Source of the DNA: Poseidonia sp.
GTDB lineage: Archaea > Thermoplasmatota > Poseidoniia > Poseidoniales > Poseidoniaceae
Assembly (NCBI GenBank): GCA_965661285.1
Contig: CBFIDD010000003.1
Location: 160,001 to 224,000, forward strand
Length of the DNA: 64,000 nt
Direction of reading: 5' to 3'
The notes under the pieces were generated by a model, which saw nothing but the letters and a program-made list of their open reading frames with translations, ran no database searches and was not told where the DNA came from. This document shows, piece by piece, positions 32,896-38,826 of the stretch. How positions within the stretch are numbered: position 1 is the stretch's first letter; every line of letters starts with the position of its first letter. The translations under genes and the position numbers were made by a program.

Positions 32896-33894
32896 ATGGC
32901 GCACATCGCAGTGTTGGGTCTTGGAAATTGGGGTACTGCCATCGCCAGATTGTGGCTTTTGGAAGGTCATAAGGTCAAAGGGTGGACCATTGAACAAGAG
33001 GTCTACGAATCCATCACGATGAGCGAGGTGAACGAAAAATACCTGCCTCACCATTCCGTACCCGGTCTGGATGCCACCATGCGCATCGAAGAAGCCATTG
33101 AGGGGAGTGAAATCATCGTTCTCGCCGTGCCCTCGTCGGTCATTCTTGACGTTGTTGAGGACATGTTGCCTCACCTCCAACCCGGTCATGTCCTGCTCGA
33201 CCTGGCCAAGGGATTGGCACCCGGAAAGCGACTGATATCCCATGCTATTCACACGCGTCTCAAGGAAGAGGGGAAAACCAATTCACTGGCCGTGTTGACG
33301 GGTCCTACCATTGCGCCTGAAGCGGCTGGTGGCGTGATGACCACGGCGTTGGTTGCCAGCGAAGACCAAGCCATTGCGCAGCGTCTCGCCCAAACCTTGA
33401 GCACACCGAGCTTCATTCTCCATCCCGCCAGCGACCCCGTCGGGGCAGAGCTTTGGGGCGCTTTCAAGAACGTGGTGGCGCTTGCCTGTGGCTTGGTTGA
33501 CGGCCTGAAACAGATCGGCGACCTCGGAGGTGATAATCTGAAGGCCGCCATTTTCATGTCCGGTTTCAAGGAAGGGTGCCTCCTGCTGGCAGAATTGGGA
33601 GCAAAAGCAGAGGTGGCGTTCGGTCCAGCCGGACTTGGCGACATGTACGTCACCGCGACCTCGCCGCACGGACGAAACAGAACCATGGGGGAAAAACTCG
33701 GTACAGGGCTGTCCCTCGACGAGGCGCTGAATGAGATGCACATGGTGGCAGAGGGTGTTCGTGCGTGCCGCATGTTTGTCGCACGCGCAGAAGACGCTGG
33801 GCTTTCTATTCCCTTTACCAAGGCCCTGAACACACTCCTGAACGGCGATATCGATGCGGAAGAATGTTGTCGTCGAATGGTCGCACTCGGATGA
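32896..33894 (+). CDS. gpsA: NAD(P)H-dependent glycerol-3-phosphate dehydrogenase
   Basis: GLGNWGTA, AKGL, GPT, KNVVALACG, GLGDMYVT, RNR, AEGV. Confidence 0.95.
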   Translation: MAHIAVLGLGNWGTAIARLWLLEGHKVKGWTIEQEVYESITMSEVNEKYLPHHSVPGLDATMRIEEAIEGSEIIVLAVPSSVILDVVEDMLPHLQPGHVLLDLAKGLAPGKRLISHAIHTRLKEEGKTNSLAVLTGPTIAPEAAGGVMTTALVASEDQAIAQRLAQTLSTPSFILHPASDPVGAELWGAFKNVVALACGLVDGLKQIGDLGGDNLKAAIFMSGFKEGCLLLAELGAKAEVAFGPAGLGDMYVTATSPHGRNRTMGEKLGTGLSLDEALNEMHMVAEGVRACRMFVARAEDAGLSIPFTKALNTLLNGDIDAEECCRRMVALG

Positions 33895-34154: not shown

Positions 34155-35069
34155 TCACTCGCTTTCATCCAGCGGTGCGCGTTTCTTCATGGGCGTTGGA
34201 TGCAAGGCCGAGGAGATCGAAGCGGGCAGGAACAGAGACGACCACGAAGGGCGATCGACATCGCCCTCCTCGGTTACCTTTGAGCGCAGGACCATTGAGA
34301 CGAAATCGATGACCACGACGACGAGGAAGACCACGACCAAGAGGGCGACGACCTTGTCGTACTGTGCGAGTTTCAGGTAGGTGTTGAGATAGAGGCCGAT
34401 GCCTCCAGCCCCCACCAATCCGATCACCGTACCGTGTCGCACGTTGTATTCGAACATGAACAGCAAATGGCTCAACAGGTGGTTAGCAGATTCGGGGATG
34501 GCCACGAGCCAGGCCGTTTCTGTTCGAGTCATACCCATGGCCTTGGCCGCCTCAAGAGGAGCGTTCTTGATGCCCTCCATCGATTCGAACTGCAACTTTC
34601 CAAGGTAGCCAACCGTGTAGAATGACATGGCACAAATGCCTGCAAGCGTCCCCATGTCGAAAATGATCATGAACAGCACCGCCCAAATGATGGAAGGTAA
34701 ACTTCGCATGCCAGCCAGCAAAATACGAGCAGGGATGGCGATTTCAATGGGCGAAAGGTTGCTCGCCGCCATGACCGAGAGGGGAAGAGCGACGATGAAA
34801 CCGATGACCGTCGCCACGAAAGCGATTTTGATGGTCTCCACCATACCGATCCATGCGACCGAACATGTGAATTCCAAGCGGGCCTCACAAACAGGGTAGG
34901 ATTGGGCCTCAAGCACCGACCAATCTGGAGGCCACAGGCTTTCTCGGAAAAAGACGCCAAGGTTGCTCATGCCACCGCTGAGGCGCCCAAGATGGCCCAC
35001 GAGGTCAATGAAAACGACCGCTGTCAACGTCAAGATACCGAGAATGATGAGCAGGAGGCGCTTGTTCAA
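34155..35069 (-). CDS. ABC transporter permease, PhnE/PtxC family
   Basis: RSLPSIIWA, EAAKAMG loop, FEYNVR...IGLVGAGGIG. Confidence 0.92.
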   Translation of the reverse strand: MNKRLLLIILGILTLTAVVFIDLVGHLGRLSGGMSNLGVFFRESLWPPDWSVLEAQSYPVCEARLEFTCSVAWIGMVETIKIAFVATVIGFIVALPLSVMAASNLSPIEIAIPARILLAGMRSLPSIIWAVLFMIIFDMGTLAGICAMSFYTVGYLGKLQFESMEGIKNAPLEAAKAMGMTRTETAWLVAIPESANHLLSHLLFMFEYNVRHGTVIGLVGAGGIGLYLNTYLKLAQYDKVVALLVVVFLVVVVIDFVSMVLRSKVTEEGDVDRPSWSSLFLPASISSALHPTPMKKRAPLDESE

Positions 35070-35737
35070 GGAACCACCTCCTCGACCAGCCGTCCGTCTT
35101 CAATCCGCCACACACGGTTTGCGACCTGACGGGCGAGTTCTTCGTGATGCTCGACCATGATCATGGCTGAGTTTTGGGCCTCAATAGCGGAACGAACAGT
35201 GCGCATGACCACCTCGACGTTGTCATCGTCAAGCTCGCCCAGGAATTCGTCCGCCAGCACCAACTTTGGCCGCTGAGCCACCGTTTTCGCTGTAGCCACG
35301 CGACGCTGCTGCCCTCCCGAAAGGATACGCACGGGCTGGTCAGCAAGGTGGAGGATGCCCAAATCTTCCATTGCTCGGTCGGCGAAGCCATGTCGCTTCG
35401 CTGACAAGGGGAAGAAGGGCAGGTGCCATTTTGAAAGGCCCACTCGAACACCCATCTCGATGTTGTTTCGAACCGTGAGATTGCCCACAAGACCCAAACG
35501 TTGGGGGATGTAACCCAGCCCGCCGCGTGAAGGGACGGCGAGTTCCACATCACCTTCCAGTGGACGAACAAGGCCCGCAATGGTGCGCAGCAAGGTGGTT
35601 TTTCCGATACCTGATGGACCGAGAACAGCGATGACGTCGCCCGCAAACACTTCGATGTTGATGTCCTCGATGAGCGGTTGATCGTAGCCAACCGCTACAT
35701 CGTGCAGGTGAACCAAGATTTCCTTCACCACAATCAC
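35066..35737 (-). CDS. ABC transporter ATP-binding protein, PhnC-like
   Basis: Walker A GPSGIGKT, signature LSGGQQRR, Walker B LVLADE. Confidence 0.95.
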   Translation of the reverse strand: MIVVKEILVHLHDVAVGYDQPLIEDINIEVFAGDVIAVLGPSGIGKTTLLRTIAGLVRPLEGDVELAVPSRGGLGYIPQRLGLVGNLTVRNNIEMGVRVGLSKWHLPFFPLSAKRHGFADRAMEDLGILHLADQPVRILSGGQQRRVATAKTVAQRPKLVLADEFLGELDDDNVEVVMRTVRSAIEAQNSAMIMVEHHEELARQVANRVWRIEDGRLVEEVVP

Positions 35738-36780
35738 GCCTCTGAGTACTTGTCATCGAGATAAGTTTGGATGCCAGGGACGTGTTGAATCAGGCCACCG
35801 TACGAACCGAGATGGGTTTGGGCGTCCGTTTCGATGAGACCGGGGGTGTTGAGGATGTTCTCCAACATGGATTTCCCGTCATCGGTGGCGTTCAAATCAA
35901 GCAGCGCAGCGACGATGAGGTCTCGAGTTGCATCGTCCACAGTATTGGGCTGATACATCAACGGATGAGAGGGCGCCAGACCAAAAGCAGGGAGCGGCAC
36001 GTAGCGGTCGCGGTCAAGGCACCACGATGCTCGCTCTGCATCATCCTCGGCGCAATAGGAATCCACGGTTGAATCCTTGGCGAAGGCCACGGCGCCCTCA
36101 CCTTCGCTGAGACAGCGCAGGGCTCCGGAATAACCGTAGTACAAGGCGCCAGATTCAGGGATGGAAGCGTCCTCTGAAAAATGATTGAAGATGGTGTTTC
36201 TCAACGACTCAATGTCCTCTTCGTCGCCAACAACTTCGGCATAGCCTTGGCCGATAAAGTAGCCCATGGGAATGAGCATGCCGGCGGATTTGAGCCAGCC
36301 CGTGTGGCATGAGGCTTGACCGGCGAGCTCAGCAAACGGATCGGTGCTTTCGTCATCATCGAGGGCTGCTTGACCTGCTGCGCTGTCGTTGAGCACCCAT
36401 GCATGAGCGCTGTAGTGGGTGCGGCCGTCGCTCTTCATGTCGGCCGCCATGGCTTCCAAACCGTAGGATTGCCAACCCATCCAAGCGGCTCCACCGTCAA
36501 GGAACGCCATGTCGGCGCTTCCAAACCTGAGAGCTTCGAGGGCGAGATTGTCGGACGTGATGGGATAAAGTTCGATGTTCAGTCCAGTCACTTCGCTGAG
36601 GTGGTCTGCGAGTTTCTGCGGATTTTCATCAAAAGAGGCATAGTCGTCCTTGACCGAGAACGCAATGCGAAGGGTGTCGTCGTCCTCACCACCTCCGATA
36701 CAACCGCTCAAGCAAGCCGTCATCATGACCAAAACAACCAGACTGCAAGCGATTCTGTTGTTATTAATTCGCGCAAACAC
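35734..36780 (-). CDS. Lipoprotein solute-binding protein, PhnD superfamily, resembling a single transferrin lobe
   Basis: GTG start at 36780 behind GGAGGTGA; lipobox LSGC; transferrin-like motifs ADMAFLDGG, THYSAHAWV, SCHTGWLKSAGMLIPMG, YYGYSGALRCLSEGEGAVAFAK, APSH. Confidence 0.9.
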   Translation of the reverse strand: MFARINNNRIACSLVVLVMMTACLSGCIGGGEDDDTLRIAFSVKDDYASFDENPQKLADHLSEVTGLNIELYPITSDNLALEALRFGSADMAFLDGGAAWMGWQSYGLEAMAADMKSDGRTHYSAHAWVLNDSAAGQAALDDDESTDPFAELAGQASCHTGWLKSAGMLIPMGYFIGQGYAEVVGDEEDIESLRNTIFNHFSEDASIPESGALYYGYSGALRCLSEGEGAVAFAKDSTVDSYCAEDDAERASWCLDRDRYVPLPAFGLAPSHPLMYQPNTVDDATRDLIVAALLDLNATDDGKSMLENILNTPGLIETDAQTHLGSYGGLIQHVPGIQTYLDDKYSEA

Positions 36781-36785
36781 AACAG

Positions 36786-36793
36786 TCACCTCC
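36786..36793 (-). promoter_or_regulatory. Shine-Dalgarno site
   Basis: GGAGGTGA on the minus strand, 5 nt upstream of the GTG at 36780. Confidence 0.8.
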
Positions 36794-36798
36794 ACCGG

Positions 36799-36814
36799 TT
36801 TAGGGCGCCCTAAA
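36799..36814. promoter_or_regulatory. Palindromic operator 1 (DtxR-family-like)
   Basis: Perfect 16-bp palindrome TTTAGGGCGCCCTAAA. Confidence 0.75.
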
Positions 36815-36820
36815 AACAAA

Positions 36821-36830
36821 ATACATATAA
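36821..36830 (-). promoter_or_regulatory. Putative archaeal TATA box of the ABC operon
   Basis: Minus strand reads TTATATGTAT, between the two palindromes, 40-50 nt upstream of the start codon. Confidence 0.65.
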
Positions 36831-36850
36831 TTTTTAGGCTGACCTAAAAA
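36831..36850. promoter_or_regulatory. Palindromic operator 2 (DtxR-family-like)
   Basis: TTTTTAGG-CTGA-CCTAAAAA, 8-bp arms around a 4-bp spacer. Confidence 0.75.
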
Positions 36851-36894
36851 TACGCAATCTTCCGCCACCGCGGCCGTTGGAGATCGGGCTGCGG

Positions 36895-36970
36895 TGGTAG
36901 TCCCTCCCGGATTCGAACCGAGGTCGGAGGAACCAGAATCCTCCATGATGGACCGCTACACTAAGGGACT
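36895..36970 (-). tRNA. tRNA-Gln(CTG), CCA encoded
   Basis: AGTCCCT/AGGGACT acceptor stem, anticodon arm GAGGA-TTCTGGT-TCCTC, T loop TTCGAAT, ends ACCA; A1-U72 is typical of archaeal tRNA-Gln. Confidence 0.95.
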
Positions 36971-37022
36971 GTGGTCGTGCGAAAGCCGTCGCCTTCTTCA
37001 ATTCAGCGGTCTGAAAAGCGAC

Positions 37023-37317: not shown

Positions 37318-38826
37318 ATGAGTGAAGTCCCTGAGGGTTTGGACATGTCCGCTCGAACCCGAGGGGCGCCGCGCCCGACCGCGACCATGACACTGACTCG
37401 GGACGGGCCCGACGGTGTGGAGGTGCTCCTGGGGCTTCGAGCCAAAACCATGCGAGCCTTTCCCAACTACTGGGCGTTTCCCGGAGGCGGTGTTTCATCG
37501 GTTGACCGCGCCGCCGTCGAAGCCTTGCCTGCGCTTCACGGGCCTGAAGCGGAATCCATTGCGTGCATCCTTCGAGAAATGAGTGAAGAACTCGGTTTGG
37601 TTCCTACCGGCGAAGGCGTGGAGGCGATGGAGGACGCAGCACGTCGTGCGGTCATCGAGGACAAAAAGGCGTGGCTTCCCCTCGCCCTCAACGGCGCCTT
37701 TCCCGTTCAGCGGGCCCAAATTCGAACCCTTAGCCACCGAATCACACCACCCTTTGGCCCGGTGCAATTTGACAACGCCTTCCTCCATCTTCACCTCGGT
37801 GATTGGAGGGGCGTTCCTGAAATCGATTTGGAGCCTCAAACCGAATTTACCGAAGTCATGTGGGCCAAACCCCTCGATATTCTCGCTCGTTGGAAAAACC
37901 ACGAAATCAAGGTCGCTCCGCCGGTGGTCACCCTGCTGATGGAAATTGAGCGAACGCTGGACCGGTTCGAGCGAAACATGGACCAAGCCGCAGTGGACAT
38001 CGCAGAACGTCTGCCAGGCCGCCGCTCAATTCTCTTTGCTCATGGCGTGGAAGTTGTGCCCATCAAAACCGCCACACTTCCGCCTGCTGACCACACCAAT
38101 TGCTACCTCGTGGGCGACCCGGAAGGCGATTTTGTCTTGGTCGACCCCGCCGTTCGCATGCGAGAGGATATGGAAGCCCTCGCCACAGCGGTTGAACGCC
38201 ATCGTGGGACGCTCGTCGCCGTCGTGTTTACACACAGTCATTCCGACCACCTGGCGGATATGTCGCTGCTGAGAGAAGCGTTTGATGTTCCGCTGTGGGG
38301 AAGTGAATACACCGCCCGCTCCGTGCCCTGCGATCGTATTCTCATCGACGGCGAAGTGCTGAGGCTCGGCAGCCAATCATGGACGGTGCTCATCACGCCC
38401 GGCCACCATCCAGGGCACGTTTGTTTGTTCAGCGATGCTGGCCTGGTGGCAGGGGACATGGTTGCGGGCATCGGCACCATCCTCATCCCGCCCGGTACTG
38501 GCAACATGAACCACTACATTGAGCAACTCGAGCGACTCCGTGCGCTCAAACCGCACCTTGTTTTTCCCAGCCACGGCCCAGTGGTAGCCGTTCCCGACCG
38601 CTTGATCGAGCACTACATCACCCACCGGCTGGCGCGCCATCAGCGTGTGCTTGACGCCGTGCTGGGCGGTGCAAGCAGCCTTGATGATATCGCCGTTCAG
38701 GCCTACAGCGACACGCCTGACGCCCACCCCGGACTTGCAGTTGACCAGACGCTCTCACATCTTCTGGCCCACGAAGAAGACGGTAGGGTCAAACGCCATG
38801 AAGCGGGTTGGACCACGGAGGGATGA
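37318..38826 (+). CDS. Nudix hydrolase + metallo-beta-lactamase (LACTB2-like) fusion
   Basis: FPGG...LREMSEELG Nudix box; THSHSDH, TPGHHPGH, GD and PSHG MBL motifs; C-terminal winged-helix-like segment. Confidence 0.9.
   Translation: MSEVPEGLDMSARTRGAPRPTATMTLTRDGPDGVEVLLGLRAKTMRAFPNYWAFPGGGVSSVDRAAVEALPALHGPEAESIACILREMSEELGLVPTGEGVEAMEDAARRAVIEDKKAWLPLALNGAFPVQRAQIRTLSHRITPPFGPVQFDNAFLHLHLGDWRGVPEIDLEPQTEFTEVMWAKPLDILARWKNHEIKVAPPVVTLLMEIERTLDRFERNMDQAAVDIAERLPGRRSILFAHGVEVVPIKTATLPPADHTNCYLVGDPEGDFVLVDPAVRMREDMEALATAVERHRGTLVAVVFTHSHSDHLADMSLLREAFDVPLWGSEYTARSVPCDRILIDGEVLRLGSQSWTVLITPGHHPGHVCLFSDAGLVAGDMVAGIGTILIPPGTGNMNHYIEQLERLRALKPHLVFPSHGPVVAVPDRLIEHYITHRLARHQRVLDAVLGGASSLDDIAVQAYSDTPDAHPGLAVDQTLSHLLAHEEDGRVKRHEAGWTTEG

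Follow-up and report, generated by a model that had tools for sequence, protein, structure and literature searches.

Is the three-gene operon examined here a phosphonate transporter or an iron importer, and which regulator would read the two palindromes that enclose the TATA-like element of its promoter? A genome survey counts "the transport of phosphonates" as a core trait of Marine Group II (PMC6336850). In the Poseidonia genome that we studied, only this operon could yield a phosphonate-transport call. It lies within a stretch of 64,000 nucleotides (contig C3, positions 160001-224000), hereafter the window, and consists of genes for a binding lipoprotein, an ABC ATPase and a permease, placed head to tail on the minus strand. 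We address the question from the promoter outwards, considering in turn the architecture of the two palindromes, their conservation, the regulator likely to bind them, the genes that follow them in related genomes and the proteins of the operon itself.

Read along the minus strand, the promoter region starts behind the gene for tRNA-Gln(CTG) and comprises a 44-nt unconserved spacer, box 1, TTATATGT, 8 nt and box 2, followed by CCGGT, GGAGGTGA, 5 nt and the GTG start codon (coordinates in Table 1). Both boxes are exact inverted CCTAA pentamers 4 bp apart (TTTAGG-N4-CCTAAA), with GCGC and CTGA as their 4-nt centres. They are situated 19-70 nt upstream of the operon start codon and are centred at 36806.5 and 36840.5, which leaves 34 bp between them. 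The two palindromes, this spacing and the TATA-like element in between had been pointed out in an earlier reading made from the DNA letters only (the sequence-only reading), and all of them are found in place. Box 1 adjoins the TATA box on its upstream (BRE) side, whereas box 2, separated from the Shine-Dalgarno sequence by 5 nt (CCGGT), covers the inferred transcription start. A TBP is encoded in the genome, as detected by a profile search in which, among the controls, only 4 archaeal genomes matched, and this justifies reading the promoter as an archaeal TATA/BRE promoter. In archaea, the centre of the TATA box usually precedes the transcription start by about 26 nt. Applying this distance, transcription would start near 36800, box 2 would span approximately positions -15 to +1 relative to that start, and box 1 approximately -48 to -33, where its downstream half would coincide with the BRE. 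The placement of one box on the BRE and of the other on the start, as proposed in the sequence-only reading, thus fits the usual TATA-to-start distance, for a start that is predicted rather than mapped. Of 23 sequencing runs found, the RNA runs contained only 4-6% of the sampled words, and RNA contigs from 4 runs covered, within 35700-37000, only 36891-37000, that is, the tRNA-Gln and its flank.

Table 1. Features of the locus, of the putative regulator and of box-bearing loci in related genomes. Coordinates without a prefix are positions in the window.
Feature	Coordinates	Strand	Remarks
Box 2, predicted proximal operator	36799..36814	.	TTTAGGGCGCCCTAAA, perfect 16-bp palindrome
TATA-like element	36823..36830	-	TTATATGT, between box 1 and box 2
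Box 1, predicted distal operator	36831..36850	.	TTTTTAGGCTGACCTAAAAA, core 36833-36848
Shine-Dalgarno	36786..36793	-	GGAGGTGA, 5 nt ahead of GTG start codon 36780-36778
tRNA-Gln(CTG)	36895..36970	-	Upstream neighbour, delimits 114-bp promoter region 36781-36894
Substrate-binding lipoprotein	35734..36780	-	Single-lobe, transferrin-like; LSGC lipobox; starts MFARINNN
ABC ATPase	35066..35737	-	PF00005 4.9e-26; start overlaps binding-protein gene stop
ABC permease, PhnE-like	34155..35069	-	PF00528
NUDIX + metallo-beta-lactamase fusion	37318-38826	+	502 residues
GpsA-like dehydrogenase	32896-33894	+	
DtxR-family gene	G000:C2:302188-302853		PF01325 4e-17, PF02742 4e-14, both above cut-off
Divergent DtxR-family paralogue	L106 (G029:C97:47642-47989); G028:C220:2147-2524		Two congeners
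Weak intergenic palindrome	L091:1494-1513 (G000:C2:296793)		GTTTCGTGCCTACGAAAC, 12.5 bits on box matrix
Fea1 ("low iron-inducible periplasmic protein" family) behind box	L042:3064-3807; L049:2339-3622; L055:1728-2993; L056:6-533		Same operator pair
M28 peptidase or M28-ZIP fusion behind box	L045, L051, L052, L057		
FTR1 iron permease behind box	L060		
Succinate dehydrogenase/fumarate reductase flavoprotein (SdhA/FrdA) behind box	L053		
Glutamyl-tRNA reductase (GlutR/HemA) behind box	L047		
Paralogous binding protein behind box	L048		
Boxes just past 3' end of large phosphodiesterase/metalloenzyme-family gene	L046:3050; L054:3071-3109; L048:6178-6216; L059:2540		Four genomes
FTR1 with box, other family	L082, L083		
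Fea1 with box, other family	L084:6-1499		Same operator pair
M28 with box, other family	L074		
Binding protein with box, other family	L075, L076, L079, L080		
4Fe-4S ferredoxin with box, other family	L087:1569-1841 (G043:C22)		Also L085 (G050:C49)
Conserved secreted protein, no Pfam family	L075:840-2303; L076:1592-3013; L082:5-1489; L083:1570-3012		About 480 residues

The number of boxes in the window is, taken alone, weakly unusual: searching for TTAGGNNNNCCTAA with at most one mismatch returns two matches, both exact, and the same search on 100 shuffles returns a mean of 0.28, with 4 of the 100 shuffles reaching two matches. Over the whole genome of 1,977,581 bases, these two boxes are the only exact matches to TTAGG-N4-CCTAA. 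A reversed control pattern occurs three times, which implies that single matches are expected by chance and that two matches 34 bp apart are not; what exceeds chance is less the number of boxes than the fact that they are paired. A weight matrix built from 49 distinct sites in orthologous promoters gives 32.6 bits to box 2 and 26.2 bits to box 1, the next-best site in the genome scoring 14.2 bits. We did not accept the five next-best sites (12.3-14.2 bits), of which four are located inside long ORFs. The fifth (C2:296793) is the intergenic palindrome GTTTCGTGCCTACGAAAC, flanked by the ends of an ORF of 496 residues and of a short convergent ORF of 110 residues; it is found about 5.4 kb from the DtxR-family gene described below and is probably unrelated. 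The same matrix scan detected no box at the DtxR-family gene itself.

The sequence-only reading expected the motif to be conserved upstream of orthologues, and this is what we observe. The binding-protein gene is present in 47 of 61 related genomes, and comparison of the upstream DNA of 30 orthologous loci, whose proteins share 48-100% identity, reveals two boxes in 28 promoters and one box in the other two, which are the most distant ones (48-50% identity). The spacing in the 28 two-box loci is 34 bp in 19 cases, 33 bp in six, and 35, 20 and 44 bp in one case each; it therefore stays within 33-35 bp in 26 of them, with diverged flanks. An alignment of 16 distinct 34-bp promoters anchored on box 2 yields the consensus TTTAGGGnnnCCTAAACnTTATA, 8 unconserved bases and AnTTTTCGGGnGnCCTAAA, and information content peaks on box 1, on nTTATA and on box 2. 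Conservation is zero upstream of box 1, and downstream it concerns the ribosome-binding region alone. This near-fixed spacing of 33-35 bp around a TATA box is a lineage-specific feature.

The same comparison bears on the idea that the palindromes act as hairpins, either as a terminator of the tRNA-Gln gene or as a 5'-UTR structure by the Shine-Dalgarno sequence. A run of T opens box 1, 45 nt downstream of the tRNA, and the end of box 2 lies 5 nt from the Shine-Dalgarno sequence, positions that would suit such structures. However, box 1 is retained at loci where the upstream neighbour is not a tRNA gene (L029, L031-L033, L038-L041), which indicates that it is not a tRNA terminator. Furthermore, box 2 reads TTTCGG...CCTAAA, an uncompensated change, in 14 of the 28 two-box promoters, and shows the compensated form TTTCGG...CCGAAA in only two; the sequence of the half-site is thus kept rather than the pairing, which favours a protein-binding site over a hairpin. 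The 4-nt centre of the boxes is also free to vary among orthologues. Hairpins are, in view of these patterns, an extremely unlikely explanation.

If the boxes are protein-binding sites, their sequence points to a family of metal-dependent repressors. In Haloferax volcanii, the DtxR-family regulator TroR has the motif TTTAGGC-NNN-CCTAAAANAN, defined by ChIP-seq, RNA-seq and reporter fusions, and at a siderophore promoter the motif occurs in tandem about 30 bp apart, iron-dependent repression being abolished only when both copies are mutated (PMC10783522). The resemblance to our boxes comprises the 16-bp semi-palindrome (TTTAGGC-NNN-CCTAAA in Haloferax), its frequent tandem arrangement about 30 bp apart at iron-uptake promoters, the archaeal TATA-type promoter and iron-dependent repression, which is described for Haloferax and predicted here (PMC10783522). 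The two systems also differ: Haloferax belongs to a different phylum and habitat. The Haloferax motif is located about 100 nt upstream of start codons, whereas here the boxes occupy 19-70 nt and flank the TATA box, and the Haloferax regulon includes 26 high-confidence genes, in contrast with a single operon in this genome (PMC10783522). SirR, a manganese-linked paralogue in Haloferax, has a different motif, TTTwGAnnnnTCwAAA (PMC10783522).

The actinobacterial IdeR/DtxR proteins provide a second term of comparison. Their 19-bp box TTAGGTTAGSCTAACCTAA contains four CCTAA repeats bound by two dimers, and when a site was designed to have only two CCTAA repeats, a single dimer bound it with a KD of 78 nM (PMC8464063). 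From this consensus we read that each dimer recognises TTAGG-N4-CCTAA. Our boxes share with this system the inverted CCTAA pentamers and the TTAGG-N4-CCTAA unit for one dimer, which in the actinobacteria serves metal-bound repression of iron uptake (PMC8464063). By contrast, they have two repeats per box instead of the four of the 19-bp DtxR/IdeR box, with GCGC and CTGA rather than TTAG/CTAA as centres and no overlapping second pair of pentamers. One dimer per box would accordingly be expected, the second dimer sitting 34 bp away and not 5 bp away. By sequence, then, the boxes are of the DtxR-family operator type in its 16-bp TroR form. The sequence-only reading had assigned them more broadly to DtxR/IdeR/SirR/TroR operators; the assignment stands for the 16-bp TroR motif, and does not extend to the 19-bp DtxR/IdeR box or to the SirR motif.

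A regulator of the corresponding family is available. Both DtxR domains occur together in a single gene of the genome, located on contig C2 and unlinked to the operon, so that the DtxR-family protein on which the sequence-only reading depended does exist in this organism; the next-best helix-turn-helix match is an Lrp/AsnC protein. PF01325 finds no match inside the window at E <= 1, which agrees with the statement of that reading that no such regulator is encoded there. Homologues occur in 58 of the 61 relatives, the three misses being genomes of 70-84% completeness, a phyletic pattern that is consistent with the proposed role and non-discriminating. Between the two larger families of the order, overall identity is 31-40%, and both preserve the recognition helix S-[PA]-A-S-x-[TS]-E-M-x-[QK]-R-L; a third family (two genomes) has Gly at the position of the Glu, where two paralogues differ as well. 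Divergent second DtxR-family paralogues exist in two congeners, one of them (G029) a few kb from a box-bearing M28-ZIP gene. Their recognition helix carries Lys for Glu, which suggests that they may sense another metal.

A transcription factor of another family might also recognise the boxes, their likeness to the TroR motif being then convergent. The lack of linkage between the DtxR-family gene and the operon, together with the lack of a box of its own, would suit such a factor. Nevertheless, half-site and spacing are identical to those of an experimentally defined DtxR-family motif, the boxes fit the one-dimer geometry of IdeR, and the order as a whole has conserved the motif as well as the regulator, so that we regard convergence as very improbable. 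We consider it highly probable, on comparative grounds, that the two palindromes are operators of the single DtxR-family iron repressor of this genome, a TroR-like protein. It is likened to TroR by its operator motif, the protein itself having been compared only with PDB structures and family models.

The metal sensed by this regulator deserves separate consideration. Aligned to structures of the diphtheria toxin repressor, the protein keeps the equivalents of H79, E83, H98, C102, E105 and H106, and has Glu at the DtxR Met10 position in this genus; in another family of the order, Met occupies that position and the equivalents of H79 and H98 vary. The residue numbering and the metal-ligand roles are those that we take to apply to DtxR, and we presume Met10 to be linked to iron selectivity. 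The same protein could instead sense manganese or zinc, in the manner of MntR or SirR, and the operon would then import another metal. This possibility is in line with the Glu at the Met10 position, with MntR being the source of the best NCBIfam models for the regulator and with the ZIP-fusion genes that carry the box in relatives. Yet the MntR score is far below its cut-off (84.6 versus 350 bits), the equivalents of Cys102, Glu105 and His106 are retained, the genes behind the box in relatives are centred on iron (FTR1, Fea1, ferredoxin, SdhA, HemA), the binding protein keeps the putative transferrin ligand positions, and the motif of the Haloferax manganese regulator SirR is a different one (PMC10783522). 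Sensing of manganese or zinc thus appears unlikely, though less so than convergence, and we retain an iron-responsive, TroR-like repressor as the preferred candidate. A DtxR-family protein that binds these boxes would then use Fe2+ as co-repressor.

The genes that carry the box in other genomes of the order provide evidence of a different kind. The pattern TTTMGGNNNNCCTAAA is found in 51 of the 61 related genomes, compared with 21 for its reversed control, and totals 101 forward matches versus 27. Outside the orthologous promoter, we examined 20 site-bearing regions; in 12 of them a recognisable metal-related gene directly follows the box, which is often paired at 33-34 bp (Table 1). No recognisable gene was found behind the box in the other eight. 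Small ORFs behind the boxes of L043, L044, L050, L054, L058 and L059 have no Pfam match, are mutually dissimilar and were set aside as unknown or spurious. In four genomes, boxes occur just past the 3' end of a large gene (836-900 residues) of a phosphodiesterase/metalloenzyme family, with no recognisable gene behind them. Five genomes belonging to another family of the order supplied twelve further loci, among which the box accompanies FTR1, Fea1, M28, binding-protein and ferredoxin genes; at one of the four binding-protein loci it stands between a binding-protein fragment and the ATPase gene. Judged from their annotated families, the genes behind the box in relatives (Fea1, FTR1, M28-ZIP, ferredoxin, SdhA, HemA) are a predicted iron regulon. 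The search for the box ahead of iron genes, suggested in the sequence-only reading, is therefore positive in relatives, and in the present genome the operon is the only target.

Some of these loci deserve mention in their own right. The Fea1 family is known from algal low-iron proteins, and the archaeal members listed in Table 1 have this pair of operators too. In L042, L055 and L056, Fea1 and the operator pair adjoin the same NUDIX/metallo-beta-lactamase gene that neighbours the promoter in the window, from which it follows that sister species have Fea1 where this genome has the transferrin-like operon. This NUDIX and metallo-beta-lactamase fusion has thereby remained next to the iron promoter in several relatives. 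The window also encodes, in an archaeon, a bacterial-type NAD-dependent glycerol-3-phosphate dehydrogenase. Conserved secreted proteins of about 480 residues, 66-92% identical to one another, are encoded divergently from FTR1 or from a transferrin-like gene, with an operator common to both, and are a candidate new component of iron uptake. The box-bearing 4Fe-4S ferredoxin gene is located about 4 kb from the DtxR-family gene in two genomes that belong to another family of the order.

The proteins of the operon have features of both iron and phosphonate systems. The binding protein matches the Pfam families Transferrin (6.8e-19) and Phosphonate-bd (PF12974, 7.1e-20). It has 96 matches in the PDB, and every one of the 60 listed is a transferrin-family protein, with lactoferrin scoring best (2.1e-26). 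Against the PhnD models it scores 27.6 bits for TIGR03431 (cut-off 261.1) and 38.5 bits for TIGR01098 (cut-off 112), and thus stays below the values for membership in PhnDCE. The lactoferrin motifs LDGG, YYAVAVV, SCHTGLGRSAG and GYSGA align with D, Y, T, K (in place of Arg) and Y, and beyond the end of the lactoferrin alignment shown, the His of APSHP was assigned by eye; the D, Y, T, K, Y and H positions are invariant in all 29 orthologues of at least 250 residues. We take Asp, Tyr, Tyr and His of lactoferrin to be iron ligands, with Thr/Arg forming the anion site. As for the membrane-associated components, the best NCBIfam model for the ATPase is PhnC (129.6 bits versus a cut-off of 266.1), and the permease reaches 215 bits against the PhnE model TIGR01097, with a cut-off of 216.7. 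PF12974-like and PhnE-like genes occur nowhere in the genome but in this operon. We found no Fea1, FTR1 or ZIP genes in this genome, which is 93% complete, the Fea1 search having been run without a positive control.

Should the operon encode a true phosphonate or phosphite transporter (PhnDCE), the boxes would belong to a phosphorus-responsive regulator. The permease score, so close to the PhnE cut-off, the PhnC match of the ATPase and the PF12974 match of the binding protein are compatible with this, as is the naming of phosphonate transport as a core trait of Marine Group II in the survey (PMC6336850). Conversely, the binding protein remains far under both PhnD cut-offs, its listed PDB matches are all of the transferrin family, Fea1, FTR1 and ZIP genes, all unrelated to phosphorus, are found behind the same box, and the box equals the motif of an iron regulator, TroR. 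We therefore judge regulation by phosphorus to be very unlikely. The operator evidence and the transferrin-like binding protein together make the operon point to iron. That it would be repressed by Fe, where the sequence-only reading proposed Fe or Mn, is supported by the conservation of the boxes, the iron genes behind them in relatives, the TroR motif and the presence of one DtxR-family gene. A more specific proposal combines these elements: the DtxR regulator would have a single target, marked by the operator pair, and this target would be the one recognisable iron importer of the genome, made of a single-lobe transferrin with an anion site and of PhnE/PhnC-like membrane parts; in this full form, we see the chances for and against as evenly balanced.

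With these components, a simple mode of action can be envisaged. When iron is sufficient, one metal-loaded dimer would occupy each TTAGG-N4-CCTAA box. The dimer on box 1, abutting the upstream side of the TATA box, would block TFB/TBP, and that on box 2 would block the recruitment of RNA polymerase or promoter opening, such that with both boxes occupied the operon for the transferrin-like binding protein, ABC ATPase and permease would be shut off, presumably by steric blocking. Upon iron scarcity, the apo-protein would leave the DNA and the operon would be transcribed. By analogy with Haloferax, where either motif alone suffices, the two boxes may act redundantly rather than by obligate cooperation. 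In Archaeoglobus fulgidus, the operon of a metal ABC transporter is repressed by MDR1, a DtxR-family protein that occupies several operators over the start site and keeps polymerase from being recruited. The system proposed here would resemble it as a case of DtxR-family repression of a metal transporter in an archaeon. The proposed switch is of an already known kind, and its value is in annotation and ecology rather than in mechanism. Our literature search returned no description of DtxR operators in Poseidoniales/Marine Group II; a comparative study of archaeal DtxR regulons, reportedly published by Leyn and Rodionov in 2015, may already predict such motifs.

Our results provide regulatory evidence, independent of protein similarity, that an operon automatically named phnDCE is an iron importer, and what has been published as a "phosphonate transport" trait for these archaea may, from the sequence comparisons presented here, correspond to iron uptake. 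If this is true, the "phosphonate transport" of Marine Group II would be a transferrin-style, carbonate-assisted uptake of Fe(III), and one iron switch would govern prokaryotic relatives of transferrin and phytotransferrin of eukaryotes, namely the operon and the Fea1 genes that replace it beside the same neighbour in sister species. Searches for the 16-bp box in genomes or metagenomes of the order can list iron-responsive genes, which offers a sequence-level view of iron sensing in abundant, uncultured archaea of the surface ocean. A corrected annotation would alter how ocean surveys interpret these archaea with respect to phosphorus and iron.
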